From a virus: 64,000 nt of DNA. The translations under genes and the position numbers were made by a program. Below are positions 45,210 through 60,300 of this stretch, one piece after another (the first letter of the stretch is position 1; each line of letters starts with the position of its first letter). Location of the stretch: IMG/VR virus record IMGVR_UViG_3300043446_003110. One strand, 5' to 3'. Under the pieces are notes generated by a model. It was not told the DNA's origin. It worked only from the letters and a program-made list of their open reading frames with translations, and made no database searches.

Positions 45210-45991
45210 TCTATCACAGTGTCTGGGGTAAGGAAAGGTTGATCAATTTGTCCATCCTCATACTTATGGAACGCGCTCAAGCGTTCCTTTTCTTTTAGCA
45301 TAGCTAGTCTCATTTTCTCCATTTCAATACCATAACGCTTCAGCGTTTCTGGATCTTGCATTAAGTTAGCTACCCATGCCGTAAAGCTTTGCTTGCTATC
45401 TTCTAGTCGCTTAATACGCTGTTCGCGGGTTCCTTTCATTTCGCGTAGAATAGCTGCCTTCTTTGTTTGAAGCTCACGGTAATCCCTGTTAAGAGCTTCT
45501 TGGGATGCCCGCAATGACGCAAGTTGGCGCTCAAGATTAAGAACGTAATCGTGGTCGCGTTGGTCCTTATCGACGGCGCGCTCGTCTGAAAGTAACTTTT
45601 CAAGAGTGGTCATCTCGTTAAGGTTATCCTTATTACTTTTTAAGCAGCGGTTCATAAGTATTTCTAGCTTTATAACATCCACGACCTGTAGTTCTTCTGT
45701 GGGAAATACATCATCTTTGAACTGTGAAATTATGCGCGACCAGTGATACTTAAAAAGTTCTAACTCTGATGGAGTAAATTGATTCTCTAGTTCAATCCAG
45801 TAGGGGCGATCTTCTAGAGAGAACGCGGCGGCTTCTTCATTAGATAATCCAAACTTAAATTTGCGTTTAACGAAGCTATCTATGCTCTCAACGTCGCGGT
45901 CAAGCTGCTTGGCTATATCTTCTACGGTAACATGATCGATAAGGCGACCGATTATACGTTCCTCTTCTTTGGAGATTCTACCCTTCTTCAT
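45206..45991 (-). CDS. HTH plus coiled-coil protein, terminase small subunit candidate
   Basis: N-terminal VEDIAKQLDR HTH-like segment, long coiled coil, upstream in packaging operon. Confidence 0.35.
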   Translation of the reverse strand: MKKGRISKEEERIIGRLIDHVTVEDIAKQLDRDVESIDSFVKRKFKFGLSNEEAAAFSLEDRPYWIELENQFTPSELELFKYHWSRIISQFKDDVFPTEELQVVDVIKLEILMNRCLKSNKDNLNEMTTLEKLLSDERAVDKDQRDHDYVLNLERQLASLRASQEALNRDYRELQTKKAAILREMKGTREQRIKRLEDSKQSFTAWVANLMQDPETLKRYGIEMEKMRLAMLKEKERLSAFHKYEDGQIDQPFLTPDTVIE

Positions 45992-46466
45992 CTAACAACT
46001 CCTTAATTGTTGCAATGATTTCTTCTCTTCTCTTTTTAGGAACATAAACATCGTTGATGATTTTTAGATAGTCGGCGCGGTATTCTGATGGTAATTTGTG
46101 ATCAACAATAGATTGTATACTTTTAGCATCAAGACTATTATCATATACCGGCTCTTCTGTAAGAATTAAGTCTTCATTAGATAAACTACTTGGTTTAAGA
46201 ATTCGCTTTTTTTCTTCTTCACCTTTAACGTAGAAGTTATCGCGAACGAAGTTCTTGAGCCTGTTAGATAAGTGAACTGCTAGAAAATTTTCAAGTGGGC
46301 GGTTTTGATCATATCGTTCCATAGCGTCCATGCAAATAATAAATGCCTCTTGTTTTATATCGTTAACGTCATAACCATGGAAGGTATATCTTGCCGACAT
46401 CCTATTAACGACAATGTTAATCTGATCAATCACCTCTTCTTCTGACATATTTTTTGGAATTTTCAT
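45978..46466 (-). CDS. Phage RNA polymerase sigma-like factor
   Basis: Sigma70 region-2-like DIKQEAFIICMDAMERYD...LENFL...NRLKNFVRD; ATG 46466 overlaps upstream TGA. Confidence 0.7.
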   Translation of the reverse strand: MKIPKNMSEEEVIDQINIVVNRMSARYTFHGYDVNDIKQEAFIICMDAMERYDQNRPLENFLAVHLSNRLKNFVRDNFYVKGEEEKKRILKPSSLSNEDLILTEEPVYDNSLDAKSIQSIVDHKLPSEYRADYLKIINDVYVPKKRREEIIATIKELLDEEG

Positions 46467-47245
46467 TCCGGGTTTTCTTCGTCTGCCCACTTTAGGGTTC
46501 TCCATCTATTTCCATTATAAAACTTTACAGTATCAGTTTCATTATCATATACAAAAGTACCAGCTTTAGCACCAGCGCCATCACTAGACTCTAACTGTAA
46601 CTGCTTTACCGCCAACTTGTTGGCGTTTAGTTTGCTACACTTTAGCGCAAGCTGTTTAGTATACTTCGTTAGGGCAGTTACAACAATATCGCTAAAGTCT
46701 TTGCTATCAAATGATAAGCTAGATAAATCATCTTCAGAAACGCGAGCTAAAAAAGAATTATCAAGAATTTTGATTGGATGTGGTAAAAATGCATCTTTAG
46801 ATGCTAGAATAGAATTTTTTTCAAAATATAAAGCAGTATTATTTGGTGGAATTTCAGATGTAATTATATTGATCGCTCCGGGTGGAGAGTAAAACCGTGA
46901 CTGACTATTTTGTAACACTCGTTGGTGATTTTCGTTTTTACCATATAGCATGGGTGTTTCACGCTTGAAGTAAGTGCTGCCATCAAGATCATATGCGTAT
47001 CCAACGCCATATTCATAAGAAACAAGATTGTTGTCTTTATAAGCAGCAATTTTGTAAAAGAACTTATTTTCGGGGCCGATCCCCATAACATTCTTTACAG
47101 AGTTATTATCAGTAATATACTTATAGTAATGAGCTTCAGAGAAGTATATGTTGGCCTTGTCTATGTTATCAATACCAATAAGCAAAATATCAGCATTATT
47201 TTCACTAAATGAAAATGTTTCAATCGCTAGATTTGGTTTTGTCAT
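46463..47245 (-). CDS. Hypothetical protein (possibly structural)
   Basis: 260 aa; C-terminal GTFVYDNETDTVKFYNGNRW fibre-like motif. Confidence 0.6.
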   Translation of the reverse strand: MTKPNLAIETFSFSENNADILLIGIDNIDKANIYFSEAHYYKYITDNNSVKNVMGIGPENKFFYKIAAYKDNNLVSYEYGVGYAYDLDGSTYFKRETPMLYGKNENHQRVLQNSQSRFYSPPGAINIITSEIPPNNTALYFEKNSILASKDAFLPHPIKILDNSFLARVSEDDLSSLSFDSKDFSDIVVTALTKYTKQLALKCSKLNANKLAVKQLQLESSDGAGAKAGTFVYDNETDTVKFYNGNRWRTLKWADEENPE

Positions 47246-47393
47246 TATTATCCTCGCTATGTGCGGTATCCTTGTCGCTTAATAACGAGGCTAAAGATTT
47301 GTCTTCTTTGAGCAAATCAGATTCTATTTGATCGCACAAAGATGCAACGGCGCGACATTCCAATTGTGTTTCAATTGTTTGTTTAGTTTTCAT
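47220..47393 (-). CDS. Small hypothetical protein
   Basis: AGGAG RBS and GTGTATA motif upstream. Confidence 0.55.
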   Translation of the reverse strand: MKTKQTIETQLECRAVASLCDQIESDLLKEDKSLASLLSDKDTAHSEDNNDKTKSSD

Positions 47394-47604
47394 AAAGTAT
47401 CTCCTATATATCATTATACACCGCATAACGATATTTTAGCAGAATCACATGATTCATAAAGGGGCGATGGGGAGGGATTGGGTAATACATTAATAAATAT
47501 AATGGGAATTGTGTAAGAACTACCCCGGCACTTTCTAGCAGTTTGACACGATGAGCGATATAAAGTAAAACCCCCCAGTATACCCATTTTAACATTAGTA
47601 GATA

Positions 47605-47651
47605 GGGGTGGGCCGCGTTCGCCGTAAACCCTTACTACATATAGACTTACG
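47605..47651 (+). repeat. 82-bp element copy 1 (partial: GC box + palindrome B)
   Basis: GGGGTGGGCCGCG + CGTAAACCCTTA-CTACA-TATAGACTTACG. Confidence 0.85.
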
Positions 47652-47866
47652 ACGATAATCATATGATCGACACGATCTACTGTTTAAGAGTTTTGGCATG
47701 GCATTTGCTATATAGCATATTCTGTACCAAACAAAATATTTTTCTTGGCATGATATTTGCTATATATAATCTTTCGATATTGTAAGAAAGATTTCCCTTG
47801 ACGATTCAAGAAAGCATGGTATAATGTCGATATAAGAAGTAAGAGAGAAAGAAAGAGAGAAAGAAA

Positions 47867-48091
47867 ATGAGAAACTTGGTTGTGTTCAATACGATGAGTG
47901 AGTTGGTTTCTTACCTTGACAACAATGGCCCCGATACGCTGGTGAATGTCGCAGCGTTCGGAATGGATCTTTTCGATTATGCTCGGGATAACGAGTATGA
48001 AATCGAAGTTGGTGAAGATGGTGGATATATTAGGATTGATGAAATGGGATATGTTGTGGAAGATTTCGCAATCGACAACGTTTGCGGATGA
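47867..48091 (+). CDS. Small acidic early protein
   Basis: 74 aa after promoter 47798. Confidence 0.7.
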   Translation: MRNLVVFNTMSELVSYLDNNGPDTLVNVAAFGMDLFDYARDNEYEIEVGEDGGYIRIDEMGYVVEDFAIDNVCG

Positions 48092-48180
48092 TACGGGGCA
48101 ACCTTACGAAAGATTAAGATTTAAGCCCTTGACAACCAAAAGCCGATAAGTATAATAGAATCAACACAAGGGAAAAAGAA

Positions 48181-48312
48181 ATGGAAACGCTAACGCTGAT
48201 CGTCGTGAAGGGTAAGTATAAGGTTTATTGGGAAATGGCTAACGGAAAGCGTATGTTGCTTGGATCATTTAAGACTTCCGCAGAGGCGGAAAGATTCATG
48301 AATGCCACTTGA
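48181..48312 (+). CDS. 43-aa early protein (paralog A)
   Basis: METLTLIVVKGKYKVYWEMANGKRMLLGSFKTSAEAERFMNAT; own promoter; paralog at 50068. Confidence 0.8.
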   Translation: METLTLIVVKGKYKVYWEMANGKRMLLGSFKTSAEAERFMNAT

Positions 48313-48363
48313 TAGGTCGATAAATATCTAGTAAAAATATAACTAACACTAAGTGAAAAGAAA

Positions 48364-48552
48364 ATGAATAGCCTTGACAAGATTCTATCTGCTATGCGTA
48401 CTGGTAAGTATGGTAGCGTTATCGACCCGAAGGGTAACGCTCATGTAGGTATTATCAACTCTATCATGCGAGAGGATGGTAGTGGAAAGAACTGGATCGT
48501 GACAGTGACCAACCGTACAGTAAGTGAACGGGTGTTCATTCACGCCAAGTAG
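48364..48552 (+). CDS. Hypothetical protein
   Basis: 62 aa, A-rich leader. Confidence 0.7.
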   Translation: MNSLDKILSAMRTGKYGSVIDPKGNAHVGIINSIMREDGSGKNWIVTVTNRTVSERVFIHAK

Positions 48553-48654
48553 TATCACACCATCCACGCGGATAAGGCACACCCCTAGCAGGAGGGGAGC
48601 AGTAGCAAATACTGTGCCAAAAAATCGCGGCATGGTATTTGCCTAGATACTTGA

Positions 48655-48736
48655 CGTAAATCCTTATACAGTAAGGACTTAGGGCAAATCGGGCGGGCCG
48701 CGTTCGTCGTAAACCCTTATGGCGTAAGGACTTAGG
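48655..48736 (+). repeat. 82-bp element copy 2
   Basis: Palindromes at 48655 and 48708, GC box 48691-48702. Confidence 0.95.
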
Positions 48737-48915
48737 ACTAATATGATGATCGACAAGATCTTCTGTTTAAAAAAATAAAATATTTGGCACGGGATTTGCT
48801 CTAGAGAATATTTCTTGTTTTGGCACAAGATTATTTTCAAAAATATTTCAGATTGCCTATTGACTTGGCCGATAAGTATGGTATAATAAGAGCATAAGAA
48901 AGAAAGAGAAAGAAA

Positions 48916-49140
48916 ATGGAAAAGGTTACTCACGTTAACGACTTCATCAACAGCCTTCCGCGAATCGTCGCCAAGAAGATTTGGCGGGTTACGGATGAGA
49001 ACGGTACGATTGTTCAGTGTGTTTCGGCTACGGACAATCGAAAGAGTACCGCACAGCGGTATATCGACAACAAGTATCCGGGTCAGGTTCTGACACTGAC
49101 TTTCGACCGTACCAGCGGTCATATCACGATCCCCCGATGA
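48916..49140 (+). CDS. Hypothetical protein
   Basis: 74 aa after promoter 48860. Confidence 0.7.
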   Translation: MEKVTHVNDFINSLPRIVAKKIWRVTDENGTIVQCVSATDNRKSTAQRYIDNKYPGQVLTLTFDRTSGHITIPR

Positions 49141-49207
49141 GAGGGGATTGACGGGGCGGAAAAGTTTCGGTAGAATCCATCCATCACTTCACTTCAAGGG
49201 GAAAATC

Positions 49208-49390
49208 ATGACCAACGATTTTGTCTACGATATGTCGGAAATCAACGAAGAGGAAATCATGCTGGGCTGGGAAGAACTGAACAGCGAGGAAGGTGAGGCC
49301 GACTACATCCCCGGCCTTGACGATGGAGAATGGATGGAAGAGGAAGAGGATGCCGATTGGGATTACTACGGGGAAGAGGAGTTTGCCTGA
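49208..49390 (+). CDS. Highly acidic 60-aa protein
   Basis: MTNDFVYDMSEINEEE...EEEFA; AAGGGG RBS. Confidence 0.7.
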   Translation: MTNDFVYDMSEINEEEIMLGWEELNSEEGEADYIPGLDDGEWMEEEEDADWDYYGEEEFA

Positions 49391-49485
49391 GAAAAATATT
49401 CTTTGGCATACCGTTTGCAGGCAGCGGTGATTGGCACACCGTTTGCTCTGCGGCGGATTGGTATGGGCTTTGCGTAGAGAGTTAA

Positions 49486-49567
49486 CGTAAATGCTTGCAG
49501 GATAAGGACTTAGGGCGAACGGGGCGGGCCGCGTTTGCCGTAAACCCTTATGGCATATAGACTTACA
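49486..49567 (+). repeat. 82-bp element copy 3
   Basis: Palindromes at 49486 and 49539. Confidence 0.95.
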
Positions 49568-49876
49568 TCTAATCATATGATCGTATCGAAGTGGTGTTTA
49601 GGGCCACAGCAAATATCGTGCCACGGAATAAAAAATCTCAACGCCTAGAATATGGGCATGGTAAGATAGGCAACCCGTTGCATATTGCTACATTACCTCA
49701 GTTTCACGGCGGAAATCACTAACGCAAAATGCTACAGGGTGTTGCAAAATGCTACGCTCAAAATCTAGGCACAAAAAATGTCATAGCGTTTTTCCCGCGA
49801 AATACGCAAAAAAAAATAATCTATGATTGGCACACCGATTGCTCTTATATATGGCATAAGAAAGTGAGAGTGAAAG

Positions 49877-50011
49877 ATGATGAATGATATCCTGATCGTG
49901 TCCGATTGCTGTGGGGCTGAAATGACCCCGATTCACGCCGAGCATGGCGTTTGTCCCCAGTGTGGTGAACACTGTGAGGCCGATATTCAAATCTGGCCGA
50001 TCCCCGAATAA
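49877..50011 (+). CDS. Small zinc-ribbon protein (44 aa)
   Basis: SDCCGAE...VCPQCGEHC; downstream of sigma54 box at 49828. Confidence 0.7.
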   Translation: MMNDILIVSDCCGAEMTPIHAEHGVCPQCGEHCEADIQIWPIPE

Positions 50012-50067
50012 GGGGGGTTGCGGCGGCGGGAAAAGTTTGATAGACTCTAAAAACAAAGGAAATGAAA

Positions 50068-50199
50068 ATGGAAACCATGACGATCATCGTAGTCGGAAAC
50101 AAGTTTAAGGTATACCGCGAGTGCGGAAACGGAAAGCGTGTGCTGTTGGGATCGTTCAAGACTTCGCACGAAGCGGAGCGATTCATGAACTCCCGCTAA
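50068..50199 (+). CDS. 43-aa early protein (paralog B)
   Basis: METMTIIVVGNKFKVYRECGNGKRVLLGSFKTSHEAERFMNSR; 31/43 identical to paralog A. Confidence 0.8.
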   Translation: METMTIIVVGNKFKVYRECGNGKRVLLGSFKTSHEAERFMNSR

Positions 50200-50259
50200 A
50201 GGGGGGTTGCGGCGGCGGAAAAGTTTGATAGAATCCACACTCACCCAAGGAAAAAGAAA

Positions 50260-50589
50260 ATGGCTACCAAGTTCAAAATCATCGAAGATGCAAAGCGTCA
50301 AGCACGATCCTGTTTTTTGGGAATCGCCATCCCTCACCAGCCATCCCTCGCCAGTGGGGAGTATGGCCCGATTCGCTCCGAAAAGGTTCTCAAGTTCAAT
50401 CGGAAAGCATTACTCCGAAAGAGGGGTAAGAGCAAGGAAAACGTCGATCCCCGCCTAATGGGGGGTAGCGATCTCATGATTGACAAGGTGGGCAAACCGG
50501 GAAGCCGTGAGAGGGTAGAGGCTTTGCGGGCTATGTATGAAATGTTCGCAGCCGCAGGGCAGGAAGTCTCCGCGTTCTACGACGAATAG
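50260..50589 (+). CDS. Hypothetical basic protein
   Basis: 109 aa, AAGGA RBS, own promoter. Confidence 0.75.
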   Translation: MATKFKIIEDAKRQARSCFLGIAIPHQPSLASGEYGPIRSEKVLKFNRKALLRKRGKSKENVDPRLMGGSDLMIDKVGKPGSRERVEALRAMYEMFAAAGQEVSAFYDE

Positions 50590-50765
50590 GGGGTTTTGGT
50601 AAGATAGGCAATCTAGGGGGTTTGGAGAAGATGGGGAGTCTCGGCCAAAGTGGCCGGATCATAAACCTTGCGAGATAGTCAGCGAGAATATTGTATTTTG
50701 TTGTTGACTTTTAAAGTCTAGGCTGTAGAATACCGATATAAGTAGTAACCAAAGGAAAAAGAAAA

Positions 50766-51065
50766 ATGAACTATCTTGAAGCCGTTGCTATGGTTCGTGG
50801 TAAGACTAACAAGAATACCCGCAAGGTTGGAAATAATACCTACGCTGAAATCGAATATGATAAGAGCGTTTCTATCCGCCTGCATGGTACTACCGTTGTG
50901 CGGTTTTATCCTAACGGGCTTGTAAAGTTGAATAGTGGCGGTTATCATACGCACACCACGAAAAAGCGTATTAACCAGTATTCTCCCGTGCGAGTTTACC
51001 AAAAAAACTTTGATTGGTTTTTGAGTGATGGTACTCCGTTCGAAGATAACATTTTAGTTTCATAA
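50766..51065 (+). CDS. Hypothetical phage protein
   Basis: IRLHGT...LNSGGYHTHTTKKRIN motif. Confidence 0.75.
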   Translation: MNYLEAVAMVRGKTNKNTRKVGNNTYAEIEYDKSVSIRLHGTTVVRFYPNGLVKLNSGGYHTHTTKKRINQYSPVRVYQKNFDWFLSDGTPFEDNILVS

Positions 51066-51080
51066 AGTAAGGAGCCAAGG

Positions 51081-51188
51081 ATGGCAGATATGTTTATAGA
51101 TTGGAACAGTTTTGGTGTGGGACTTGTTTTTGGTATTGTTTGCGTTTGGTTTGTTTCTGATCTTGTTTTTCCAATAAGGAAGAAATGA
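51081..51188 (+). CDS. Small membrane peptide
   Basis: 35 aa with one hydrophobic helix, AAGGAG RBS. Confidence 0.5.
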   Translation: MADMFIDWNSFGVGLVFGIVCVWFVSDLVFPIRKK

Positions 51189-51268
51189 ATATGTGTACAC
51201 TGGACAAGATTACACTAGCGGTGTCGTTTGCGGTGGGATGCGTGGCAGCTTGGATTGTGAACAGTTGA
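51185..51268 (+). CDS. Small membrane peptide
   Basis: 27 aa hydrophobic, ATGA overlap. Confidence 0.4.
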   Translation: MNMCTLDKITLAVSFAVGCVAAWIVNS

Positions 51269-51316
51269 CGTAACTCTATATCTGACAAGGGTTTACGACG
51301 AACGGGGCGGGCCGCC
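51269..51316 (+). repeat. 82-bp element copy 4 (palindrome A + GC box; B replaced by a sigma54 box pair)
   Basis: CGTAACTCTATA-TCTGA-CAAGGGTTTACG then GGGGCGGGCCGC. Confidence 0.85.
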
Positions 51317-51469
51317 GCCGTTTTTTGGCATGGTATTTGCTACATAGCAAGTCATGTGCCAAAAGTAGCCAGAATCCTGTCATCTTTTTAAGAAAAAATA
51401 TTTGTAGGTTGGGGCTTGACGTAGCCGATAATAGGTGTAGAATCAGAGCATCACCAAGGGAGAAATGAA

Positions 51470-51649
51470 ATGAGCATCTTTGAAGATACCGACGCGATCA
51501 ACGCCATCCTCGCTGAACTGGCCGCGAATGAGTCGGTCGAGCCGATGGTCGAGCCGATTGACGATCCCAGCGTGGAAGTCAACTTTTGGGATTGGGCGGA
51601 TATTGTTGGTGCTGTTGACGATTTCATTCCAGAGGAGTATACTGTATGA
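51470..51649 (+). CDS. Acidic 59-aa protein
   Basis: MSIFEDTDAINAILAEL...EEYTV; after promoter 51416. Confidence 0.7.
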   Translation: MSIFEDTDAINAILAELAANESVEPMVEPIDDPSVEVNFWDWADIVGAVDDFIPEEYTV

Positions 51650-51891
51650 GTCACCCTGACCCCTGTTTCGATCCCGCTAACTCTTATGAGGATGATATGA
51701 ACGATAACTATGATGATTTCTGTGATTTCAACGATGACTATGAAAGCCACCGTGACGATTACTATGATGATAGCATGGACGGCGATCATGACTCCGCGAT
51801 GACTTCCGCCGGTTGGGGAACCGATGAGGATTACGGTTCCTATGGTGATGATATCGACGCTTTCCACGATTACTATGGAGATGATTTCTGA
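51646..51891 (+). CDS. Asp/Tyr-rich acidic protein
   Basis: 81 aa, DGDHDSAMTSAGWGTDEDYG motif. Confidence 0.75.
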   Translation: MSHPDPCFDPANSYEDDMNDNYDDFCDFNDDYESHRDDYYDDSMDGDHDSAMTSAGWGTDEDYGSYGDDIDAFHDYYGDDF

Positions 51892-52220
51892 TGTATAACG
51901 GATATACTAACTACGAAACGTGGGTTGTAAATCTGTGGATTGACAATGAGCAAGGCTCACGCGATCACTGGGTTGGTATCGCAGAGTATATTTACAAGCA
52001 TCGTGCGGAAGAGCAAAAGCATTTTTCTAAAATGGATGATGCTATTTATATTCTGGCAGATAAGTTGAAAGAAGATCATGAAGAGGCTAAGGATGAAATC
52101 CTTGAGAATATGAAGTTGACTTCTAGCCTTTGGGCTGATTTGCTTGGTGCGGCACTGAGTGAAACTAACTGGCGAGAAATCGCTAGTAATCTTCTGGAAA
52201 ATGTTGAAGTTGAGGCTTGA
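51891..52220 (+). CDS. Hypothetical phage protein
   Basis: YNGYTNYETW..NLWIDN N-terminal motif. Confidence 0.75.
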   Translation: MYNGYTNYETWVVNLWIDNEQGSRDHWVGIAEYIYKHRAEEQKHFSKMDDAIYILADKLKEDHEEAKDEILENMKLTSSLWADLLGAALSETNWREIASNLLENVEVEA

Positions 52221-52282
52221 CACTGGCCGATAACTAGTGTACAATGGTTGAAAAGGTTTACCCACTAAGGAGTTGATTAGGT

Positions 52283-52687
52283 ATGAATGATGCGTTTACG
52301 GTTGGTGTGATTGTTGCTTGTGCCGCTGCGGCGGTTGCTGTTTTCTTTCTCTATAACGTCTATAGGGGTGTGCATGATAGCCTTGCTAATGCTGTTATTG
52401 GTTCTGTATATAACTTTCGATACTTCCAACCATTGAGTGGTGATTATGAGCGTTATCTTGCAAAGGTTGTTGATATTCGTAATCTGACGCAGGCTGAAAT
52501 CTCGCGTTTGAACTGGACGAGCGATTACCGTCAATATGATAAGAACTTCCATCGTTCACCTACGCTTGTTACATGTAAGATGAGCAACGGTGACTATCGC
52601 CAGTTTTATGCAGAGCGTAGTGATATGTGCAAGCGTACAGCGGTTGGTAACTTGCTTTATAACATGGGTGTAGCATATCTGTTCTGA
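52283..52687 (+). CDS. Membrane-anchored hypothetical protein
   Basis: N-terminal TM helix, AAGGAG RBS. Confidence 0.75.
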   Translation: MNDAFTVGVIVACAAAAVAVFFLYNVYRGVHDSLANAVIGSVYNFRYFQPLSGDYERYLAKVVDIRNLTQAEISRLNWTSDYRQYDKNFHRSPTLVTCKMSNGDYRQFYAERSDMCKRTAVGNLLYNMGVAYLF

Positions 52688-52722
52688 TGTACACTAACTA
52701 ACCCGACAACCTAGACCCTAAT

Positions 52723-52804
52723 CCTAAGTCCTTACGGGACAAGGGTTTAGGGCTAGGCGGGCGGGCCGCGTTCAACGTAAACCCTTACGCCACAACACTT
52801 TACG
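52723..52804 (+). repeat. 82-bp element copy 5
   Basis: Palindromes at 52723 and 52776. Confidence 0.95.
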
Positions 52805-52896
52805 ACAAATCAAAAAATCTTTTATTTTCTGCTTGACAGGCTAAAGTTCCAGTGGTAGAATGTCGATATTAGAAGTAGAAGAAAGAGAGTGAAAAG

Positions 52897-53184
52897 ATGA
52901 GCAATCCCTATTCGCCGTATTGGCTTGGTAATACCCTAAACTTTACCTATCATGGTAAGAATGTCTGGGCAACTATTCTGAAGTTTGGTAAGGATTGGAT
53001 TACTTGTATCACAAAGGACGGCTATCGTACTTATAAGTGGAACAAGATGAGTCCCACACTATTGTATCAGTGCAGGGTGAGTGATTTGATTGTGCATTAT
53101 GAGCGATATGGTAATATGGATTTTGAATATCTGTATCGCTACTATGGACCGTCAACTCCTACGATTCAGTGGAAAGAGGATTAA
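52897..53184 (+). CDS. Hypothetical protein
   Basis: 95 aa after promoter 52833. Confidence 0.7.
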   Translation: MSNPYSPYWLGNTLNFTYHGKNVWATILKFGKDWITCITKDGYRTYKWNKMSPTLLYQCRVSDLIVHYERYGNMDFEYLYRYYGPSTPTIQWKED

Positions 53185-53185
53185 T

Positions 53186-53350
53186 ATGTCAATATGGGAT
53201 GAATGCGTACATTGTGATGAAACGGCAGATTTGGTAGTTTGGGAGGAATGGGTAAACTACGTAGAACAGGGTGGTTTGTCTCTCCCTAAGAATGAAGATC
53301 GATGTTGTGCAGATAGTCAGCGTCAGCGAAACGGTACACTAAGTAGGTGA
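53186..53350 (+). CDS. Small Cys-containing protein
   Basis: MSIWDECVHCDE..., GAGG RBS. Confidence 0.55.
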   Translation: MSIWDECVHCDETADLVVWEEWVNYVEQGGLSLPKNEDRCCADSQRQRNGTLSR

Positions 53351-53416
53351 GAAACGGTACACTTGACAAACTAAACTTTTTAAGGTAGAATGTCGATACA
53401 TACGTTAGGAGAAAAT

Positions 53417-53614
53417 ATGAAACACTTTGTTAAACTTTCTAATGGCAAAACTGCTGTTCTTATTGAAGAAGATAATGCCCTGAGTATTGCCCTAGGTGAT
53501 GGAGATGGAGATATTGACATATACATAGCACAGATTACAAGGGATGGTGTGCTTGCGTACTCAACTGCCGCATGGGCGCCAGAGGATATTTCTACAGGAT
53601 TGAAAAATGAGTAA
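53417..53614 (+). CDS. Hypothetical protein
   Basis: AGGAG RBS, promoter 53363. Confidence 0.65.
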   Translation: MKHFVKLSNGKTAVLIEEDNALSIALGDGDGDIDIYIAQITRDGVLAYSTAAWAPEDISTGLKNE

Positions 53615-53840
53615 TATATTTGGGACGTATACGAGTAAAGAAATCAAGAGCGTTATCAAGAAGCCATTTCATGAGTGGCCCGAAGATATCACTATGTATT
53701 TGCAGGACATTATGGCATATGAACTCATGGATCAGTGGCTAGAGAATCACTCTGACGAAGAATATGTAGAATATATTGAGAATATTGTGGACGATCTTAC
53801 CTCCCATATTGAGGATAATGACGAAGATTTAGACAGTTGA
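53607..53840 (+). CDS. Acidic hypothetical protein
   Basis: 77 aa. Confidence 0.65.
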   Translation: MSNIFGTYTSKEIKSVIKKPFHEWPEDITMYLQDIMAYELMDQWLENHSDEEYVEYIENIVDDLTSHIEDNDEDLDS

Positions 53841-53920
53841 CAACATACGGGTCTATGGTAGAATGATATCAAAGAAGCCATAGATAAAAGACAGTCGAGT
53901 ATGGCAGACACCCGTATTTT

Positions 53921-53993
53921 GGGTCATTAGCTCAGTTGGTAGAGCAAGGAGCTTTTAACTCTTTGGCCGTAGGTTCGAGTCCTACATGACCCA
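53921..53993 (+). tRNA. tRNA-Lys(UUU)
   Basis: Cloverleaf GGGTCAT/ATGACCC, anticodon loop CTTTTAA, GTTCGAGT T-loop. Confidence 0.92.
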
Positions 53994-54000
53994 TTATTTT

Positions 54001-54007
54001 GTGTATA
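54001..54007 (+). promoter_or_regulatory. Late promoter motif GTGTATA upstream of endonuclease
   Basis: Same motif as in the late block. Confidence 0.6.
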
Positions 54008-54049
54008 ATATAGTAACGGACAATGAATCCGCTACTTAAGGAGAATATT

Positions 54050-54463
54050 ATGCACAGTAAGAGAAAAGGGAATATAGGTCAGTTTGCAATAGCATTAGAA
54101 CTATCTAGATTAGGATACTCAGTTTTTACTGAGGAAGGGGATATATCAAAGATAGACATCATCGCAGAAAAAGATGGAAAACTAATAAGGATACAATCAA
54201 AAGCAATAACACCAAAAAATAATACTCTGACATTATCAGTTAAGAAAAGTGGGCCAAACTATCATTATATATATGAACAGGGTATATTTGATTTTTTTGG
54301 TATTGTAGATTTAGAGGATGGAAAGGTATACCTAGTTCCAGATAAGATATTATCAGAATATACTAGCTCTTTTGCATTAAGAAAAATACCGTCTAAGAAT
54401 AATCAAAGCAAAAATGTGCATGATGCCGCCGATTATCTTTTGGAAAAAGTCTTGACAAAGTAG
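54050..54463 (+). CDS. PD-(D/E)XK (homing-type) endonuclease
   Basis: KRKGNIG...LGYSV...IDIIAE...IRIQSK; AT-rich insert between tRNAs; AAGGAG RBS. Confidence 0.8.
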   Translation: MHSKRKGNIGQFAIALELSRLGYSVFTEEGDISKIDIIAEKDGKLIRIQSKAITPKNNTLTLSVKKSGPNYHYIYEQGIFDFFGIVDLEDGKVYLVPDKILSEYTSSFALRKIPSKNNQSKNVHDAADYLLEKVLTK

Positions 54464-54512
54464 CGTGTATAAAGTATAATAGATAAACCATCCTCTAACC
54501 TCCCGGAATACC

Positions 54513-54659
54513 ATGTATAACGAAAACGTCATGAAGTGGTGCGGCCCATACGATCAAGAAGAATACGAAGAACTCATTGGCGATGATGAGCGAGATATTA
54601 TCGTATATGACGATAGCAATGAGTGGTACAATATTTATGCTTCGGAGGCTGACGTTTGA
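54513..54659 (+). CDS. Small acidic protein (48 aa)
   Basis: Manual translation, after promoter 54452. Confidence 0.5.
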   Translation: MYNENVMKWCGPYDQEEYEELIGDDERDIIVYDDSNEWYNIYASEADV

Positions 54660-54671
54660 GTTGCGGTGGTT

Positions 54672-54743
54672 GCCGATATAGCTCAATGGTAGAGCCACTG
54701 ATTTGTAATCAGTAGGTTACAGGTTCAAGTCCTGTTGTCGGCT
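54672..54743 (+). tRNA. tRNA-Thr(UGU)
   Basis: GCCGATA/TGTCGGC acceptor, loop TTTGTAA. Confidence 0.92.
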
Positions 54744-54814
54744 TACGGGATGGTGTAACGGTAGCACGAAAGATTTTGGTCCTTTCTGTCTAGGTTCGAA
54801 TCCTAGTCCCGTAA
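54744..54814 (+). tRNA. tRNA-Gln(UUG)
   Basis: TACGGGA/TCCCGTA acceptor, loop TTTTGGT. Confidence 0.88.
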
Positions 54815-54817
54815 TAT

Positions 54818-54889
54818 TGGCAAATAGCACAACGGTAGTGCAAGCGGCTGTTAACCGCTAGGTTATAGGTTCGAATCCTATTTTGCCAG
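54818..54889 (+). tRNA. tRNA-Asn(GUU)
   Basis: TGGCAAA/TTTGCCA acceptor, loop CTGTTAA. Confidence 0.92.
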
Positions 54890-54892
54890 TTT

Positions 54893-54965
54893 GGCCCTAT
54901 CGTCTAACGGTTTAGGACAACGGATTTTCGTTCCGTTTATCGGGGTTCGAATCCCCGTAGGGTCA
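54893..54965 (+). tRNA. tRNA-Glu(UUC)
   Basis: GGCCCTA/TAGGGTC acceptor, loop TTTTCGT. Confidence 0.9.
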
Positions 54966-54970
54966 CTCGT

Positions 54971-55018
54971 CGTAAGTCCTTATCTAGCAAGTATTTAGGA
55001 ACAACGGGGCGGGCCGCG
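54971..55018 (+). repeat. 82-bp element copy 6 (palindrome A + GC box)
   Basis: CGTAAGTCCTTA-TCTAG-CAAGTATTTAGG then GGGGCGGGCCGCG. Confidence 0.85.
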
Positions 55019-55103
55019 TTTTCCATGCCAAAGATTTTCTAAATATTTCCCCTTGACAGTGCCGATATAGAGTGTAGAATCGGTGAACACAAGGGAGAAA
55101 GTT

Positions 55104-55808
55104 ATGAAAGTCGCAAACGGTAATGATAAGTTAGGCAAGGGTTGCTTGGTCGTTTCTAGGCCAGTTGGTGATACTTGCCCGTCAACGTGTGCATTTTTGG
55201 GTAACGGTTGCTATGCAGAGCAAACCGAGAAGATGTATCCTAACGTGCGTCCTGCTGGTATGCAGAATGTAATCACTGAGCGTGGCCGCATTCGCTCTAT
55301 GATTCTCGACGCTATTCGTCAAGGTAAGTCTATTCGCTGGCATGAGCGTGGTGATTGGTTCCTCGACGGTAAACTTGACACCGACTACGTTGATAATGTA
55401 GTGTGGGCTTGCGAGAGTATTCTTGCCGATGGTACTACACTTCCCGATATGTGGTTTTATACGCATATCTACGATAGTCGCCTTGTGGCTATGGAAAAGT
55501 ATATGAATGTATATGCTAGTGTGCATAACGCTAATGATAAGGCTACGGCATCACTCGCCGGTTTCAAACTGTTCGCATGGTGCGATAGCGACGAGAAGAT
55601 TGCAAAGAAACGCCCCAAGCGTAAGGCTGCGGCGGAAGCGTGGCGTAAGAGTCTCCCGAAACTGGTGATTCTTGACGGCGAAAAGTTTATCACTTGCCCA
55701 GAAATCCGTCGTGGTCGTGGGATTGTGACTTGCACACCGACTAAGGGTAGTGTAGACTGTAATCTGTGCGTCAAGGGTTTGGCTAACGTTCTTTTTCCCT
55801 CTCACTAA
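55104..55808 (+). CDS. Gp88-like Cys-rich (radical-SAM-related) phage protein
   Basis: TCPSTC...CYA, IRWHERGDW, WFYTH, C-terminal CP...C..C. Confidence 0.6.
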   Translation: MKVANGNDKLGKGCLVVSRPVGDTCPSTCAFLGNGCYAEQTEKMYPNVRPAGMQNVITERGRIRSMILDAIRQGKSIRWHERGDWFLDGKLDTDYVDNVVWACESILADGTTLPDMWFYTHIYDSRLVAMEKYMNVYASVHNANDKATASLAGFKLFAWCDSDEKIAKKRPKRKAAAEAWRKSLPKLVILDGEKFITCPEIRRGRGIVTCTPTKGSVDCNLCVKGLANVLFPSH

Positions 55809-55816
55809 GGATAAAT

Positions 55817-56032
55817 ATGGAAACCTTTACATATACTTGCGTTACACTTAGAGACTTTTGTGACTATGCCGATTGGGATTATGATTATGTTCTGGATGAA
55901 CTGCTAGAGAGTGATGTTAGTTGGGGAACTAATGATGATACATTGGTAACTCCAGAAACTGTTGCTCATATTTGTGAATATGCTGTGCCAGAAGGTATTG
56001 ATAAAAACCTTATGATTAGCCTTGGGGGTTGA
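55817..56032 (+). CDS. Acidic hypothetical protein
   Basis: 71 aa, AAGGA RBS. Confidence 0.7.
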   Translation: METFTYTCVTLRDFCDYADWDYDYVLDELLESDVSWGTNDDTLVTPETVAHICEYAVPEGIDKNLMISLGG

Positions 56033-56034
56033 AT

Positions 56035-56541
56035 ATGTATACTATCGTTAAGAAGCGTAGCGGTATGGGTTGTGCTTCCGCGTTCCATAAACTCAAGGGG
56101 TATAAGGATCGTGGATTTAAAATATTTGATAGTAAAGATAGTGCAGAGATTGCCCATACTAATCAAGTAGAACTGTCTATGTATAATCTCGCCCCGTATG
56201 TTTATAGTCAAGTCGGGCGTGTGCGTAAGAGTGATGGTAGTCTAACTCACTGGGGATTCATTACTGAAATCGCGGAACTAATCTGCTGTCCCGGTAATGG
56301 TTGCTACTGTTGTGATCGTGAAGGTATAGAAGATGATTATGAGTATGAGATTAGCAATCTTACTAACGAAATGGAAGAACATGGATTTAGTTTTGGAGAT
56401 AATCATGCCGGTAATGTAGGCTTCGTCAAACGTAACGGAGTAGACGTTATGGTGTGTATCGATACTGGAGATGAGAGCGTAGTGAACGAAGATCGTTGCT
56501 ACTGTATCACTTGCAGAAAGGGCGGTTGCTGCCATGTGTAA
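56035..56541 (+). CDS. Minimal protein-kinase-like protein
   Basis: SGMGCAS loop, GFKIF, LAPYVY, FITE, DNHAGNV catalytic loop, IDTG. Confidence 0.65.
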   Translation: MYTIVKKRSGMGCASAFHKLKGYKDRGFKIFDSKDSAEIAHTNQVELSMYNLAPYVYSQVGRVRKSDGSLTHWGFITEIAELICCPGNGCYCCDREGIEDDYEYEISNLTNEMEEHGFSFGDNHAGNVGFVKRNGVDVMVCIDTGDESVVNEDRCYCITCRKGGCCHV

Positions 56542-56761
56542 GTATTACATTAAGTCTAACACGCTAGAACTTATCTACTCTACAGATAAAACTCCACTTG
56601 AGGCTGCGGTAGTAGCACTAGGTGAGACTAATAAGTTTGACATATTAGATGAATATTTTTATATTGACGAGCGTGGTATGAAAGATTATGCCACAGCAAA
56701 ACCTGACACTATTGTAATCCCTACTAAACTGGTCGCGGCAGAAGCCGGTTGGACAATGTGA
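56534..56761 (+). CDS. Hypothetical protein
   Basis: 75 aa coupled to upstream gene. Confidence 0.65.
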   Translation: MCKYYIKSNTLELIYSTDKTPLEAAVVALGETNKFDILDEYFYIDERGMKDYATAKPDTIVIPTKLVAAEAGWTM

Positions 56762-56843
56762 CGTAAACCCTTGTCGCTATTAGAGTTACGGCGAACGGGG
56801 CCGGGGAGATTTGACGTAAACCCTTATCAAATATAGACTTACA
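56762..56843 (+). repeat. 82-bp element copy 7 (variant GC box)
   Basis: Palindromes at 56762 and 56815. Confidence 0.9.
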
Positions 56844-56906
56844 ACCTAAAGTTTTTTCTTGACAGTGCCGATAGGTATGGTACGATACTTGCATAGGAGA
56901 CAAGGT

Positions 56907-57098
56907 ATGTATATTTGGAGAGTCTGGAAGAATAACCGGTTTGCGGGATATGTATCGTCTGCTAGCCAGTTCGATGCGTATCTTAGGGCAACTGAGCAAT
57001 ATGGGCAAAATGTGTGGGTTGAGCGGACTGTAGAATACAAGGTGGTGTACCACCCAAATAACCAAGATCATTTTGTGGGGGATAGTCAGCCAGCCTAA
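56907..57098 (+). CDS. Hypothetical protein
   Basis: AGGAG RBS, promoter 56859. Confidence 0.65.
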   Translation: MYIWRVWKNNRFAGYVSSASQFDAYLRATEQYGQNVWVERTVEYKVVYHPNNQDHFVGDSQPA

Positions 57099-57130
57099 AG
57101 TTTCTAGAACAGAATGTCGATAATCCTTAT

Positions 57131-57478
57131 ATGAAAAAGGAGAAAGGCATCATGATTCAGTGGATTGGCGTGATCATCACGATTTGTGGATTGGTGTATA
57201 CGGGCTTCAAGGACGTTCAAAATGGCAATATAAAAATCCCGTCAATATCTCAAAACGAGGTCTTGACAAAAACAAACTATCCTATACAATACTGTCTAAT
57301 GGCTTACGATCCTAACACTGACAAGGTTTACTATCAACACGAAAACGGAATATGGTATGATTACCCTCCACAACAACGACGATATGCGGCCACGCCGCAA
57401 CGTAATCAAAATCAAGAAAGTTATGCCTTGGGAAATCCGTCAGGGACACCAAGAGCATCGGGATACGGTGTTCGATAA
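57131..57478 (+). CDS. Membrane-anchored hypothetical protein
   Basis: N-terminal TM segment. Confidence 0.55.
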   Translation: MKKEKGIMIQWIGVIITICGLVYTGFKDVQNGNIKIPSISQNEVLTKTNYPIQYCLMAYDPNTDKVYYQHENGIWYDYPPQQRRYAATPQRNQNQESYALGNPSGTPRASGYGVR

Positions 57479-57545
57479 TCGCCCCAAGCGTCAACGTACC
57501 CGTGGTGCTATTGACAAGCAGTGGCGTAAGGAGTATGATGTATGA
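57357..57545 (+). CDS. Small basic protein
   Basis: DNRPKRQRTR; promoter 57263 lies inside the upstream ORF; ATGA coupling to next gene. Confidence 0.55.
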   Translation: MITLHNNDDMRPRRNVIKIKKVMPWEIRQGHQEHRDTVFDNRPKRQRTRGAIDKQWRKEYDV

Positions 57546-57697
57546 GCATGGTATGTCAAGATTGCGAAAGCGACAACATTGGATGGGATGCTTGGGTTGA
57601 CCAAGATGGTAATGTTGTTGGTGGCCCGTATGATAACTGTCAATGTATGGATTGTGGTTCAGACAACGTAGAAGAAGAAAGGGATATCTATGCCTAA
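57542..57697 (+). CDS. Small zinc-ribbon protein (51 aa)
   Basis: CQDCESDN...CMDCGSDN. Confidence 0.7.
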   Translation: MSMVCQDCESDNIGWDAWVDQDGNVVGGPYDNCQCMDCGSDNVEEERDIYA

Positions 57698-58163
57698 CTG
57701 GTGCATGAACACTCTGACCGTTTCCCATACCGATAAGGATATGGTTCAGAAGTTTGCTGACGCATGGAATACTGGAGCAGTGTGCGAACAGTTTATTCCC
57801 AAGCCGCCAGAAGAAGATTGGTACTCTTGGAATGTCTCTAACTGGGGAACCAAGTGGGACTTTGGACTTGATAAGAACTTTGATGAACCCGTTACTGTCA
57901 AGCAGAACGGCGATAAGTATGAAGTTTGTGTTGCTCCTAACACAGCATGGTCGCCACCTATTGACTTCTATAACCATCTGGTAGAACTGGGATATAATGT
58001 TCACGCCAGTTATTTTGAGCCGGGAATGGGATTCTGTGGTATTTACCATGACGGCTATGATAACTACATTGACTATGGCGATGATAAGGATAGTATTCCA
58101 GTAGGTGTGTGGAATGACTTCGGCTTGGATGAGTTCTTTGAGATGATGGAGGAAGAAGCATGA
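57690..58163 (+). CDS. DUF1281/YubB ferredoxin-like domain protein
   Basis: MPNWC.N, WYSWNVSNWGTKWD, TAWSPP, YFEPGMGFCG. Confidence 0.8.
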   Translation: MPNWCMNTLTVSHTDKDMVQKFADAWNTGAVCEQFIPKPPEEDWYSWNVSNWGTKWDFGLDKNFDEPVTVKQNGDKYEVCVAPNTAWSPPIDFYNHLVELGYNVHASYFEPGMGFCGIYHDGYDNYIDYGDDKDSIPVGVWNDFGLDEFFEMMEEEA

Positions 58164-58570
58164 TCAAGGTACGCTATCATTTGCAAGAAGGCCAGCATTA
58201 TAAGCACTGGCAGTTCAAGGATACTAAAACTAAGGACGTATGGTATGTAAATCCTAATGATGGAATAATCACCCTCAATAACTGTGTGCTGCATAACAAT
58301 CGTAATGTGGCAGACAAGATTTATATGGGGGCTAATAAGGATGTCTGTGCATGGATCAAGTGTAAGGGCGTCATTCATAACTTCGATAAAGAGATTCCCT
58401 CTTGGTGTACGCACCTAAAGTATGACCCTAGGAAACTTCCTTACTGGCATACTTGGTCAGGAAGAAACATTGACGGTTTTGCATTTGACACTCTCTACCT
58501 TACACCTAAAGGCGTATACTACAACGAATGTAGGAATGGTATCCTAAATCCTTTGAAAATAACGACTTAG
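58160..58570 (+). CDS. Hypothetical phage protein
   Basis: VRYHLQEGQHYKHWQ...KDVCAWI...YDPRK. Confidence 0.75.
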   Translation: MIKVRYHLQEGQHYKHWQFKDTKTKDVWYVNPNDGIITLNNCVLHNNRNVADKIYMGANKDVCAWIKCKGVIHNFDKEIPSWCTHLKYDPRKLPYWHTWSGRNIDGFAFDTLYLTPKGVYYNECRNGILNPLKITT

Positions 58571-58624
58571 GAGAAACGCGGCCCGCCCCCTTGCTTCTAA
58601 ACCCTTACCAGCAAACGACTTAGA
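58543..58624 (-). repeat. 82-bp element copy 8 (inverted)
   Basis: Palindromes at 58543 and 58596, CGCGGCCCGCCCC core. Confidence 0.92.
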
Positions 58625-58685
58625 ACTAAAAAAATATTTTTAAGGTTATGGGCTTGACAGGACGATAATAGAGTGTACAATACAG

Positions 58686-59295
58686 GAGTCAAGCAAACGC
58701 TTGTTGGTTATGTCGGGCCGAGTAACCGTAAAACTGAGGATCAGTGTCCTAGGAAACGCTGGTTCTAATCGGTCAAACAATACAAACATTCGTGGGTCTA
58801 TGCTCAGGGACTAGATAAGGTTAAGCCATTACGATAAACCTACTGTCCGTCATGCGGGTCATGCGGGGTGGGGTTGACAGCGGGCTTAAACGCTGTATAG
58901 TAGTGCTTATCTATGGGGGATAGCGTCCTCACCACGATTCAATACAAGGACCATCGGTTGTACAAGCCGGAAAAAATGTGAATAGAGTTTGTTTAAGAAG
59001 GCGAATGTCTTCCGCTCTATTGTGGCCCTTACAATACAATCACACGTTGGATATTATCCTTTACTATGTATGGCGAACAGCCTAGACATTGCAATGCTAC
59101 ATGGCCGTGTGATACAATACAACCAGTAACCGTTCCCAAGAGCCAGACCAAAACGGGTCTTATGTGCTAGCAATGCCCGTTTTGCAGGGAGGATTTCCGT
59201 GGACGGTTTCCACCAGTTTTAACCTTGCTCCAAGGGTTCAAAATATCGGAGTATTGGTGGATTATAGGATCGGGGCGTAAAAGATCCGCTGGTAA
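58686..59295 (+). ncRNA. Putative array of five structured ncRNAs separated by CAATACAA
   Basis: No + strand ORF; own sigma70 promoter; 6-9-bp stems within the units. Confidence 0.6.
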
Positions 59296-59303
59296 CAAAA
59301 CAT

Positions 59304-59501
59304 ATGAAAATAACTAAACAACAAATAACCGACGCTCTTGGTATTGATAGTGATGATCTATCTAAGAAAGAACTCACTATTGCACTAAGAAATCTTGAGA
59401 ATATACTTGACGATGTTGCAGAAGATATTGAAGATGATTTTAAATCTGCTGCTTTAGGCGATGCTTCTAACCTAATCCAAATGATAAGGAACGGGCTGTG
59501 A
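59304..59501 (+). CDS. Hypothetical protein
   Basis: 65 aa. Confidence 0.65.
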   Translation: MKITKQQITDALGIDSDDLSKKELTIALRNLENILDDVAEDIEDDFKSAALGDASNLIQMIRNGL

Positions 59502-59665
59502 CCGACAAAGAAAAGGCGATGCTTAAGATTCTGAAAGTCTTGAAGAGCATGATGGGCGTCACTAATAGATTTAATCGTGAAGAAGCCTTGACTCTCGCCA
59601 AAGAGCATGGTATAACTGTGGAAGATTTGATTGATATGGCACACCAAATAGCAATGAGTGTCTAA
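59498..59665 (+). CDS. Hypothetical protein (55 aa)
   Basis: GTG start overlapping upstream stop; manual translation. Confidence 0.55.
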   Translation: MTDKEKAMLKILKVLKSMMGVTNRFNREEALTLAKEHGITVEDLIDMAHQIAMSV

Positions 59666-60293: not shown

Positions 60294-60300
60294 AGCTCGC

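Follow-up and report, generated by a model that had tools for sequence, protein, structure and literature searches.

The stretch of DNA analysed here, IMG/VR virus record IMGVR_UViG_3300043446_003110 (64 kb; hereafter, the window), comes from a large, as yet uncultured tailed phage, and the subject of this work is a dense cluster of boxes of the sigma-54 (RpoN) type located in the first 3.7 kb of the early region. The minus strand between 452 and 47245 (~35% G+C) carries the virion, packaging and sugar-modification genes, including those for the tape measure, tail fibres, terminase, ClpP, GDP-mannose dehydratase and glycosyltransferases. On the plus strand, many small genes follow from 47.8 kb onwards (~44% G+C), with transfer RNA (tRNA) genes farther along. 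Most of these small genes are preceded by near-consensus sigma-70 promoters, as a preliminary description of this DNA had stated for the neighbourhood of the boxes, and those near the cluster are located at 47798, 48129, 48860, 49148, 50704 and 51416. The statement does not extend to gene 49877, where no sigma-70-like site was found between 49640 and 49877 on the strand of the gene.

A box was defined by GG and GC at the right spacing and was scored over the 10 core positions of TGGCAC-N5-TTGC. Between 47601 and 51400, 10 boxes with a score of at least 9/10 were found, compared with a mean of 0.10 and a maximum of 3 in 1000 dinucleotide-preserving shuffles. With the threshold lowered to 8/10, the same interval contained 14 boxes, with 0.83 being expected from the shuffles; the other 60.2 kb of the window contained 3 boxes at 9/10 or better and 19 at 8/10 or better. 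All six perfect boxes of the window lie within the cluster, together with four boxes scoring 9/10 and the 8/10 boxes that retain GG and GC (Table 1), including a weak one at 48575(+). Every box named previously was present in the sequence. The tandem triplet, with starts 28 and 27 base pairs (bp) apart, and the back-to-back pair 48605(−)/48628(+), with a gap of 8 bp, were found as described; the head-to-head pairs 47694/47715 and 51326/51347 were likewise present, with starts 21 bp apart, but their 15-mers are separated by 6 bp and not by 4 bp.

Table 1. Boxes and associated features of the early region, with predicted start sites and local context (nt, nucleotides).
Feature	Position	Strand	Context
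Sigma-54-type box, 9/10, TGGCATGGCATTTGC	47694–47708	+	Start predicted at ~47720; sense; 147 nt before ATG 47867; head-to-head with 47715(−)
Weak box, 8/10, TGGTACAGAATATGC	47715–47729	−	Head-to-head with 47694(+); faces leftward operon; missing here in G001 and G002
Box, 9/10	47746–47760	+	Start predicted at ~47772; 37 nt upstream of −35 of sigma-70 promoter 47798
Perfect box, 10/10	48605–48619	−	Predicted start ~48593; would fire left into hairpin 48582–48600; antisense to gene 48364–48552
Box, 8/10, CGGCATGGTATTTGC	48628–48642	+	Predicted start 48654, one base ahead of palindrome 48655–48683
Repeated element	48655–48736		Two 29-bp palindromes (48655–48683, 48708–48736), 53 bp apart, around GC box GGGCGGGCCGC
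Perfect box, 10/10	48785–48799	+	Start predicted at ~48811; followed by half box TTTGGCACAAG at 48819 and sigma-70 promoter 48860; sense; 105 nt before ATG 48916
Tandem triplet: 49404 (9/10), 49432 (10/10), 49459 (8/10)	49404–49473	+	Each predicted start abuts the next box
Third triplet box	49459	+	Predicted start 49485, one base ahead of palindrome 49486–49514
Repeated palindromic element	49486–49567		Palindromes 49486–49514 and 49539–49567; between convergent boxes
Perfect box, 10/10	49609–49623	−	Start predicted at ~49597; leftward toward palindromic element; divergent partner of 49828(+)
Enhancer-like block	49678–49754		Sites TTGCATATTGCTA 49678–49690, ACGCAAAATGCTA 49722–49734, TTGCAAAATGCTA 49742–49754
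Invariant block and A-tract	49764–49822		Follows enhancer-like sites
Perfect cassette box, 10/10	49828–49842	+	Predicted start 49854; 23-nt purine-rich leader to ATG 49877
Gene, 44-amino-acid CxxC...CxxC zinc-ribbon protein	49877–50011	+	Sole recognisable promoter in front is the sigma-54 box
Box, 9/10	51326–51340	+	Start predicted at ~51352; right after intrinsic terminator 51306–51325; sense; 118 nt before ATG 51470; upstream of sigma-70 promoter 51416
Perfect box, 10/10	51347–51361	−	Start predicted at ~51335; head-to-head with 51326(+), jointly a 42-bp near-palindrome; would fire left into terminator and half element 51263–51315
Outlying weaker box, 9/10, TGGTACGATACTTGC	56878–56892	+	Just past palindromic element copy (~56761–56842)

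Two syntenic relatives were available from IMG/VR, G001 (149.5 kb, 94% complete) and G002 (35.8 kb), with ~68–87% identity across the box region, and 15 further related loci (L-numbered) were collected via a conserved pattern. At least 12 related phage contigs of IMG/VR have the same box cluster at the corresponding position, and a census of the window and 12 relatives comprised 65 distinct boxes. In G001, six of the seven exact matches to TGGCAYN5TTGC fell inside 2.4 kb at the orthologous place, with the reversed control pattern giving zero matches; G002 contained four exact matches inside 1.4 kb. Among orthologous boxes, GG and TGC are fixed and the 5-nt spacer varies. This is also evident from an alignment of 13 cassettes (A1), in which GGCAC and TGC are invariant over five spacer variants.

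Positions that had not been used for selecting the boxes follow a preference as well. Of the 65 boxes, 51 have T at −27, 64 have a purine at −20 and 48 have T at −16; position −11 is T or A in 48. This matches the extended sigma-54 consensus, in which −27 is a pyrimidine, −20 is G or a purine, −16/−15 are T-rich and −11 is A or T. The conserved blocks are 12 bp apart from centre to centre, a distance fitting sigma-54 and not the ~23-bp −35/−10 spacing of the sigma-70 family, to which the factor encoded by the phage belongs. Experimentally bound sigma-54 sites of Salmonella show the same flanking pattern (PMC3844500). A reading of TTGGCA as the −35 hexamer of sigma-70 promoters was rejected, as no conserved −10 was found downstream. 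Judged by the exact bipartite geometry, the fit to the consensus outside the core, the conserved cores over variable spacers and the enhancer of one pair, the boxes are very probably sigma-54 sites kept by selection, and the earlier assignment to RpoN is well supported.

The stretch upstream of 49828(+) is the best-conserved non-coding part of the region, being 87% identical to G001, compared with ~68% for the neighbouring genes. Alignment A1 (13 distinct copies) revealed a constant order of a reversed box, three invariant GCAAAATGCTAC sites, an invariant block CAAAAAATGTCATAGCGTTTTTCCCG, an A-tract, the forward box, the leader TATAAGAAAGAGAGAG and the ATG. Nine of the 13 distinct cassettes have the (−) box, each time 218 bp ahead of the (+) box, and at 18 loci (13 distinct) a box is found 71–72 bp past paired GCAWWWTGCTAC sites, with the ATG ~35 nt after the box. 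Measured from the predicted rightward start at 49854, the three sites are centred at approximately −170, −126 and −106, and from the predicted leftward start at 49597 at approximately −87, −131 and −151; activator sites are commonly found 70–150 bp upstream of a sigma-54 promoter (PMC3844500). The 13-bp sites have the form TTGCA-W3-TGCTA; two of them agree with the LuxO site TTGCAW3TGCAA in 12 of their 13 positions and the third in 11, the LuxO sites in qrr promoters being located at about −89 to −120 (PMC11443567). This likeness hints at an activator of the NtrC/LuxO type, with no evidence of LuxO itself or of a Vibrio host. From its layout, 49609(−)/49828(+) is very probably a real activator-dependent, bidirectional promoter pair.

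In the relatives, the cassette precedes at least eight different genes, and five of the genes behind it are homologues of the zinc-ribbon gene 49877. Homologues of the window genes 48916 and 48181/50062 stand behind a sigma-54 cassette in L097 and L099; in the window, 48181 and 50062 have sigma-70 promoters of their own, and the sigma-70 promoter of 48916 is preceded by box 48785(+). In G002, a second cassette copy replaces the sigma-70 promoter 47798 on the same leader, GATATAAGAAGTAAGA, with the predicted starts ~2 nt apart. Such an exchange of promoter types on one leader would be difficult to account for if transcription did not start from the box.

Another sequence in the vicinity resembles part of the cassette. 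Positions 50587–50640, after gene 50260–50589, contain two copies of a 27-bp direct repeat, TAGGGGGTTTTGGTAAGATAGGCAATC. The repeat, possibly what is left of a further cassette, is similar to the conserved GGCATGGTAAGATAGG block (49649–49675) that forms the left margin of the enhancer cassette.

Other boxes keep a fixed distance to a repeated palindromic element, of which the window contains ~10 copies (47606–62489; near 47623, 48655, 49486, 51267, 52723, 54965, 56761, 60301 and 62461). The distance from the −12 C to the start of a palindrome half-site is 13 nt in nine distinct boxes, with both strands represented; it is 14–15 nt in two boxes and 17 nt in six, the latter abutting the GC box and replacing one palindrome. 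The predicted start of the leftward box of the enhancer pair falls on a palindrome edge in G001, G002 and others, so that the element is bracketed by convergent boxes. Compared with G001 and G002, the window has a 26-bp insertion on the 49609(−) side of the element. The back-to-back pair 48605(−)/48628(+), which has a gene-end hairpin on one side and the palindromic element on the other, recurs in G001, G002, L100, L104, L107 and L109 with starts constantly 23 bp apart. Two composite arrangements were also found repeatedly, namely box, half box and sigma-70 promoter as at 48785(+) (G001, L100, L106 and L109) and a box 37 nt ahead of a sigma-70 −35 as at 47746(+) (L097, L098 and L099). At the place of 51347(−), relatives have a related (−) box directly next to the GC box. 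Both the tandem triplet and the head-to-head palindromes are peculiar to this genome, apart from one comparable case in L104, and relatives carry a back-to-back pair where the window has the triplet; triplet and head-to-head arrangements look like local duplications or inversions of a unit of box plus 12 nt.

An arrangement absent from the window was seen at L103 ~2570 (−) and L104 ~5644 (−), where a perfect box ends 16 nt before a sigma-70 −35 (TTGACC or TTGACG). It is a candidate for promoter occlusion, in which the two holoenzymes would compete for the same DNA.

Many of the boxes had been considered to lie in a non-productive geometry. Boxes 47694, 47746, 48785, 49828, 51326 and, less directly, 48628 are placed in a plainly productive way for early genes, and 49609(−) is placed as a divergent promoter partner; four boxes point into the palindromic element, and three or four are antisense. 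Over the whole census, 39 boxes are sense and 26 antisense.

No near DNA match to the window was found among 50,697 phage records. The capsid, terminase, sigma factor and GP88-like proteins have distant or no phage relatives (identity of 28% at most), the hosts of those distant relatives being Bacillus, Microcystis, Streptomyces and Thermus, and the exact capsid protein gave no match on record. The best bacterial relatives of the GDP-mannose dehydratase are only ~50% identical and scattered over many phyla. The enhancer site and the box were not found in combination in any of the 5 + 401 genomes scanned, the 401 being sampled Gammaproteobacteria. With no near DNA match and only remote protein relatives, the enterobacterial host assumed in the preliminary description is unsupported. 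A six-frame search of G001 gave no match to the sigma-54 DNA-binding domain, and the AAA+ domain of sigma-54 activators (Sigma54_activat) was found neither in G001 nor in G002; the G001 searches recovered a single phage sigma-70-family gene. No T7-type RNA polymerase was found in G001 either, but the control genomes were likewise blank, so that this result has little weight. With neither a sigma-54 nor an activator gene in the near-complete relative, the phage would have to borrow both factors from the host. The lack of a phage AAA+ activator counts against a self-contained phage system and not against sigma-54 dependence.

On balance, it seems probable that the boxes are genuine sites of the host sigma-54 holoenzyme, belonging to a few conserved control modules that have been shuffled and that occupy the initial 3.7 kb of the early region. 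Most of them look like real activator-dependent promoters rather than decoys, and some probably serve non-coding or antisense RNAs. The core module would be a bidirectional, enhancer-dependent pair, in which three GCAAAATGCTAC sites and the A-tract lie between 49609(−) and 49828(+), as far from the promoters as activator sites usually are. Promoter 49828 would drive an early gene rightward from the 23-nt leader, and the leftward promoter 49609 would fire into the palindromic element. Boxes 47694, 47746, 48785 and 51326 would be upstream partners of sigma-70 early promoters, giving dual promoters; 48628 and 49459 would be promoters with their start at the edge of a 29-bp palindrome, and 48605 and 51347 leftward promoters antisense to the preceding early gene. 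An ATP-dependent activator, presumably of the host, would bind the GCAAAATGCTAC sites and open nearby closed complexes via DNA looping, possibly reaching all closed complexes within ~2 kb. Part of early expression, together with short non-coding or antisense transcripts through the elements, would thereby be tied to the signalling state of the host.

The boxes are confined to 3.7 kb centred on the enhancer sites, in an early region of at least 16 kb that has the same elements and sigma-70 promoters throughout, and G001 has the same confined layout. A single enhancer looping onto complexes within ~2 kb would explain this confinement; an enhancer acting from 1.5 kb, that of rocG, is among the cases cited in PMC3844500.

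Several points weigh against this interpretation. Recognisable activator sites were found only beside 49609/49828 and adjoining none of the other boxes, and activation of the latter from up to 2 kb is conjecture. For the host, rpoN and a suitable activator are only implied. Neighbouring holoenzymes would clash at the head-to-head pairs and in the triplet with its 27–28-bp spacing. As the boxes share descent, counts over the relatives are not independent. Behind the antisense boxes (26 of the 65 distinct ones), no conserved open reading frame or known RNA family was found: the frame 49184–49576, antisense behind 49609(−), was rejected because G001 and G002 show no conservation of its protein, and Rfam returned only tRNAs at gathering thresholds and nothing credible in 47400–51600 at E up to 1. 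In RNA folding, the element exceeds shuffled sequence by a modest margin only (z of −0.6 to −3.6), on which ground a very stable RNA was rejected.

The mismatches of the element, most of which are of the A.C or G.U type, are unevenly distributed, with 60 A.C against 31 G.U on the sense strand. Box-proximal copies carry A.C on the sense strand and would, on this basis, fold better as leftward or antisense RNA; the distal copies 52723 and 60301 carry G.U and appear to be inverted. This weakly fits a structured RNA made from the leftward boxes and is suggestive only.

Among the other explanations, the one put forward in the preliminary description is that of a decoy, sponge or roadblock, where closed complexes would drain a small host sigma-54 pool during replication and blunt stress or defence responses, or would insulate early units from read-through. 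The very high quality and density of the sites would suit such a role, as would the 40% of boxes that are antisense without a gene behind them, the location of several boxes directly after gene ends and hairpins without a T-run (e.g., 48582–48600 before 48605(−)) and the failure to find an activator gene in the near-complete relative. Binding of sigma-54 holoenzyme does not by itself lead to initiation, and non-canonical sites have been suggested as decoys, for E. coli only as a possibility (PMC4591121); moreover, binding beside or over another promoter can repress that promoter (PMC3844500). Fixed registers to leader and ATG, to the palindrome edge and to sigma-70 promoters, however, matter for the position of a start and not for mere binding, and neither these nor the conserved enhancer are necessary for titration. 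The tandem spacing of 27–28 bp and that of the head-to-head pairs make the expected footprints overlap and would lower the number of bound holoenzymes, these arrangements are not conserved, and there are merely ~7–13 sites per genome. As to the roadblock, RNA sequencing in E. coli revealed no such effect of bound sigma-54 holoenzyme (PMC4591121). The computations thus gave no support for this function, the registers, the interchange with sigma-70 promoters, the shared enhancer and the footprint-limiting spacing all pointing otherwise, and we consider it distinctly improbable, while titration by at least 10 strong sites multiplied by replication could be a side effect or a function.

Closer to the promoter interpretation is the idea that function is limited to 49609(−)/49828(+) and maybe to the boxes that precede sigma-70 promoters, with the rest being inert hitch-hikers of mobile promoter/terminator modules spread by repeat recombination, as in the PeSL cassettes of T4-type phages. 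The early region is made of shuffled repeats, cassettes have been gained, lost and duplicated between the window, G001 and G002, and the triplet and head-to-head palindromes have the appearance of genome-specific rearrangements; PeSL-mediated shuffling is documented (PMC2839356, PMC4122927), and certain E. coli sigma-54 sites are regarded as noise. This is unlikely in our view, since the 23-bp offset of the back-to-back pair and the 13-nt palindrome register are kept in many diverged relatives with GG/GC intact and spacers changed, which argues for selection on the pair and the element-linked boxes too. Going beyond activator-dependent promoters in the other direction, host sigma-54 might provide a second, signal-gated channel, with one activator landing site serving ~10 promoters within 2 kb in both directions, and with convergent promoters that start at palindrome edges yielding complementary hairpin RNAs or collisions with early transcription, thus switching cassettes by host state; the replicated array could also drain the sigma-54 pool. 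This larger scheme seems quite unlikely. Finally, the motif might be read by another factor, such as a phage DNA-binding protein or the phage sigma-70-family factor 45978–46505(−), making the −24/−12 likeness coincidental. The phage does encode a sigma factor (PF04542), the boxes are sometimes palindromic like dimer-binding sites, and TTGGCA is similar to a −35 hexamer that a simple scan pairs with weak −10-like hexamers. The repeating unit is, however, a single asymmetric box in tandem, back-to-back and head-to-head positions, which misfits a dimer site; the distance between the blocks is that of sigma-54, no conserved −10 follows the boxes, the flanking preferences agree with sigma-54 sites, and the motif is absent from the late region that the phage sigma factor would serve. 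This explanation is highly improbable.

If the boxes are activator-dependent promoters, they have much in common with classical enhancer-dependent sigma-54 promoters, of which glnAp2 with NtrC is an example: −24 GG/−12 GC at exact spacing, activator-type repeats 90–170 bp upstream, an A-tract between sites and promoter, and two promoters diverging from shared sites. The phage differs in having a virulent-type genome in which no activator or sigma-54 gene of its own was found, in the mobility of the cassette, which stands before many unrelated small genes, and in a leftward partner that has no gene and fires into a palindromic repeat. Divergent pairs with one shared enhancer belong to this class as well; zraP/zraSR and hycA/hypA appear as adjacent sigma-54 sites in the Salmonella list (PMC3844500). 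With LuxO/qrr of Vibrio (PMC11443567), the phage shares 13-bp TTGCA-W3-TGCxA sites, two of them ~20 bp apart near −106/−126, and some of its boxes would also seem to drive short non-coding RNAs; in contrast, the right arm in the phage is invariantly TGCTA and not TGCAA, Rfam revealed no Qrr-like RNA, and nothing links the phage to Vibrio.

Literature on sigma-54 in phages comprised little beyond Pseudomonas phage YuA, for which use of a sigma-54-like promoter is reported (Ceyssens et al. 2008, as cited in PMC10914365). As far as that citation goes, YuA is likewise a phage without its own RNA polymerase that uses sigma-70- and sigma-54-type host promoters, with one mapped sigma-54-like promoter compared with 10–14 boxes in 3.7 kb, in both orientations and with an enhancer cassette and a palindrome register, in the present case. 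In the PeSL cassettes (PMC2839356, PMC4122927), promoter and hairpin modules also flank small variable early genes and mediate their gain, loss and swap; they carry sigma-70 early promoters and a terminator stem-loop, whereas the modules described here consist partly of sigma-54 boxes and an enhancer, with a double 29-bp palindrome around a GC box as the hairpin. The resemblance is one of organisation and not of sequence homology. The intragenic or non-promoter sigma-54 sites of E. coli and Salmonella (PMC4591121, PMC3844500) are comparable in being of high quality and serving no obvious gene, with decoy, interference and small-RNA roles having been proposed, but these extra sites are scattered inside genes, whereas those of the phage occupy intergenic DNA, where they form a modular cluster with an enhancer nearby. 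The novel features of the phage are the density of its boxes, an enhancer cassette that is both conserved and portable, box layouts of divergent as well as convergent type, and the strictly kept register to a double-palindrome element.

Without an ATP-driven activator that has responded to a signal, sigma-54 promoters stay silent. By putting part of its early programme behind such promoters and bringing no activator of its own, a phage would in effect read the signalling state of the host at infection, and if the element-directed and antisense boxes are active, a sigma-54-driven layer of non-coding RNA would be added to phage early regulation. As a compact, portable enhancer–promoter unit, the cassette could help to name the activator of the host and thereby the host. 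Published cases are few, and the dense, modular arrangement described here is conserved across a family of environmental phages.

The leftward operon adjoining the early region contains the sigma-70-family gene, 45978–46505 (−), which encodes a factor of 175 amino acids (Sigma70_r2/PF04542, E 1e-5) that is kept in G001 and G002 and is probably a late sigma factor; no homologue was found by tblastn among the 50,697 phage records. At the start of the operon (47246–47460, −), a small unlisted gene is apparent, with an ATG near 47393 and the ribosome-binding site GGAGA, as well as a conserved −10 TATAAT near 47415–47430 with a poor −35 (TGCTAA or TGTCAA), a region that may be an activator-dependent middle promoter. 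The possibility that the boxes serve as promoter of this operon was rejected, since it has its own conserved TATAAT region, and since 47715, the sole leftward box in its vicinity, is weak and missing in the relatives.

The divergent junction at ~47.5 kb, where GC skew flips sign, coincides with a split in composition between the late minus-strand block (1–47000, ~30–39% G+C) and the early plus-strand block (48000–64000, 41–48%); within the late block, the surroundings of the capsid gene at 24–26 kb have 44% G+C. Six tRNA genes of the early region, at 53920–54966 and 61641–61717 (Lys-UUU, Thr-UGU, Gln-UUG, Asn-GUU, Glu-UUC and Ile-UAU), all read A/U-ending or A/U-rich codons, consistent with the AT-rich late genes. 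Genes 48181–48312 and 50062–50199 are paralogous early genes of 43–45 amino acids (METLTLIVV... and METMTIIVV...), ~73% identical in DNA, each with its own promoter. In the late block, 35209–35910 (−) encodes a protein of 233 amino acids with an Mtd_N domain (E 6e-17) and a weak match to phage cement proteins; in Bordetella phage BPP-1, diversity-generating retroelements act on Mtd, the major tropism determinant, whose N-terminus this domain represents.

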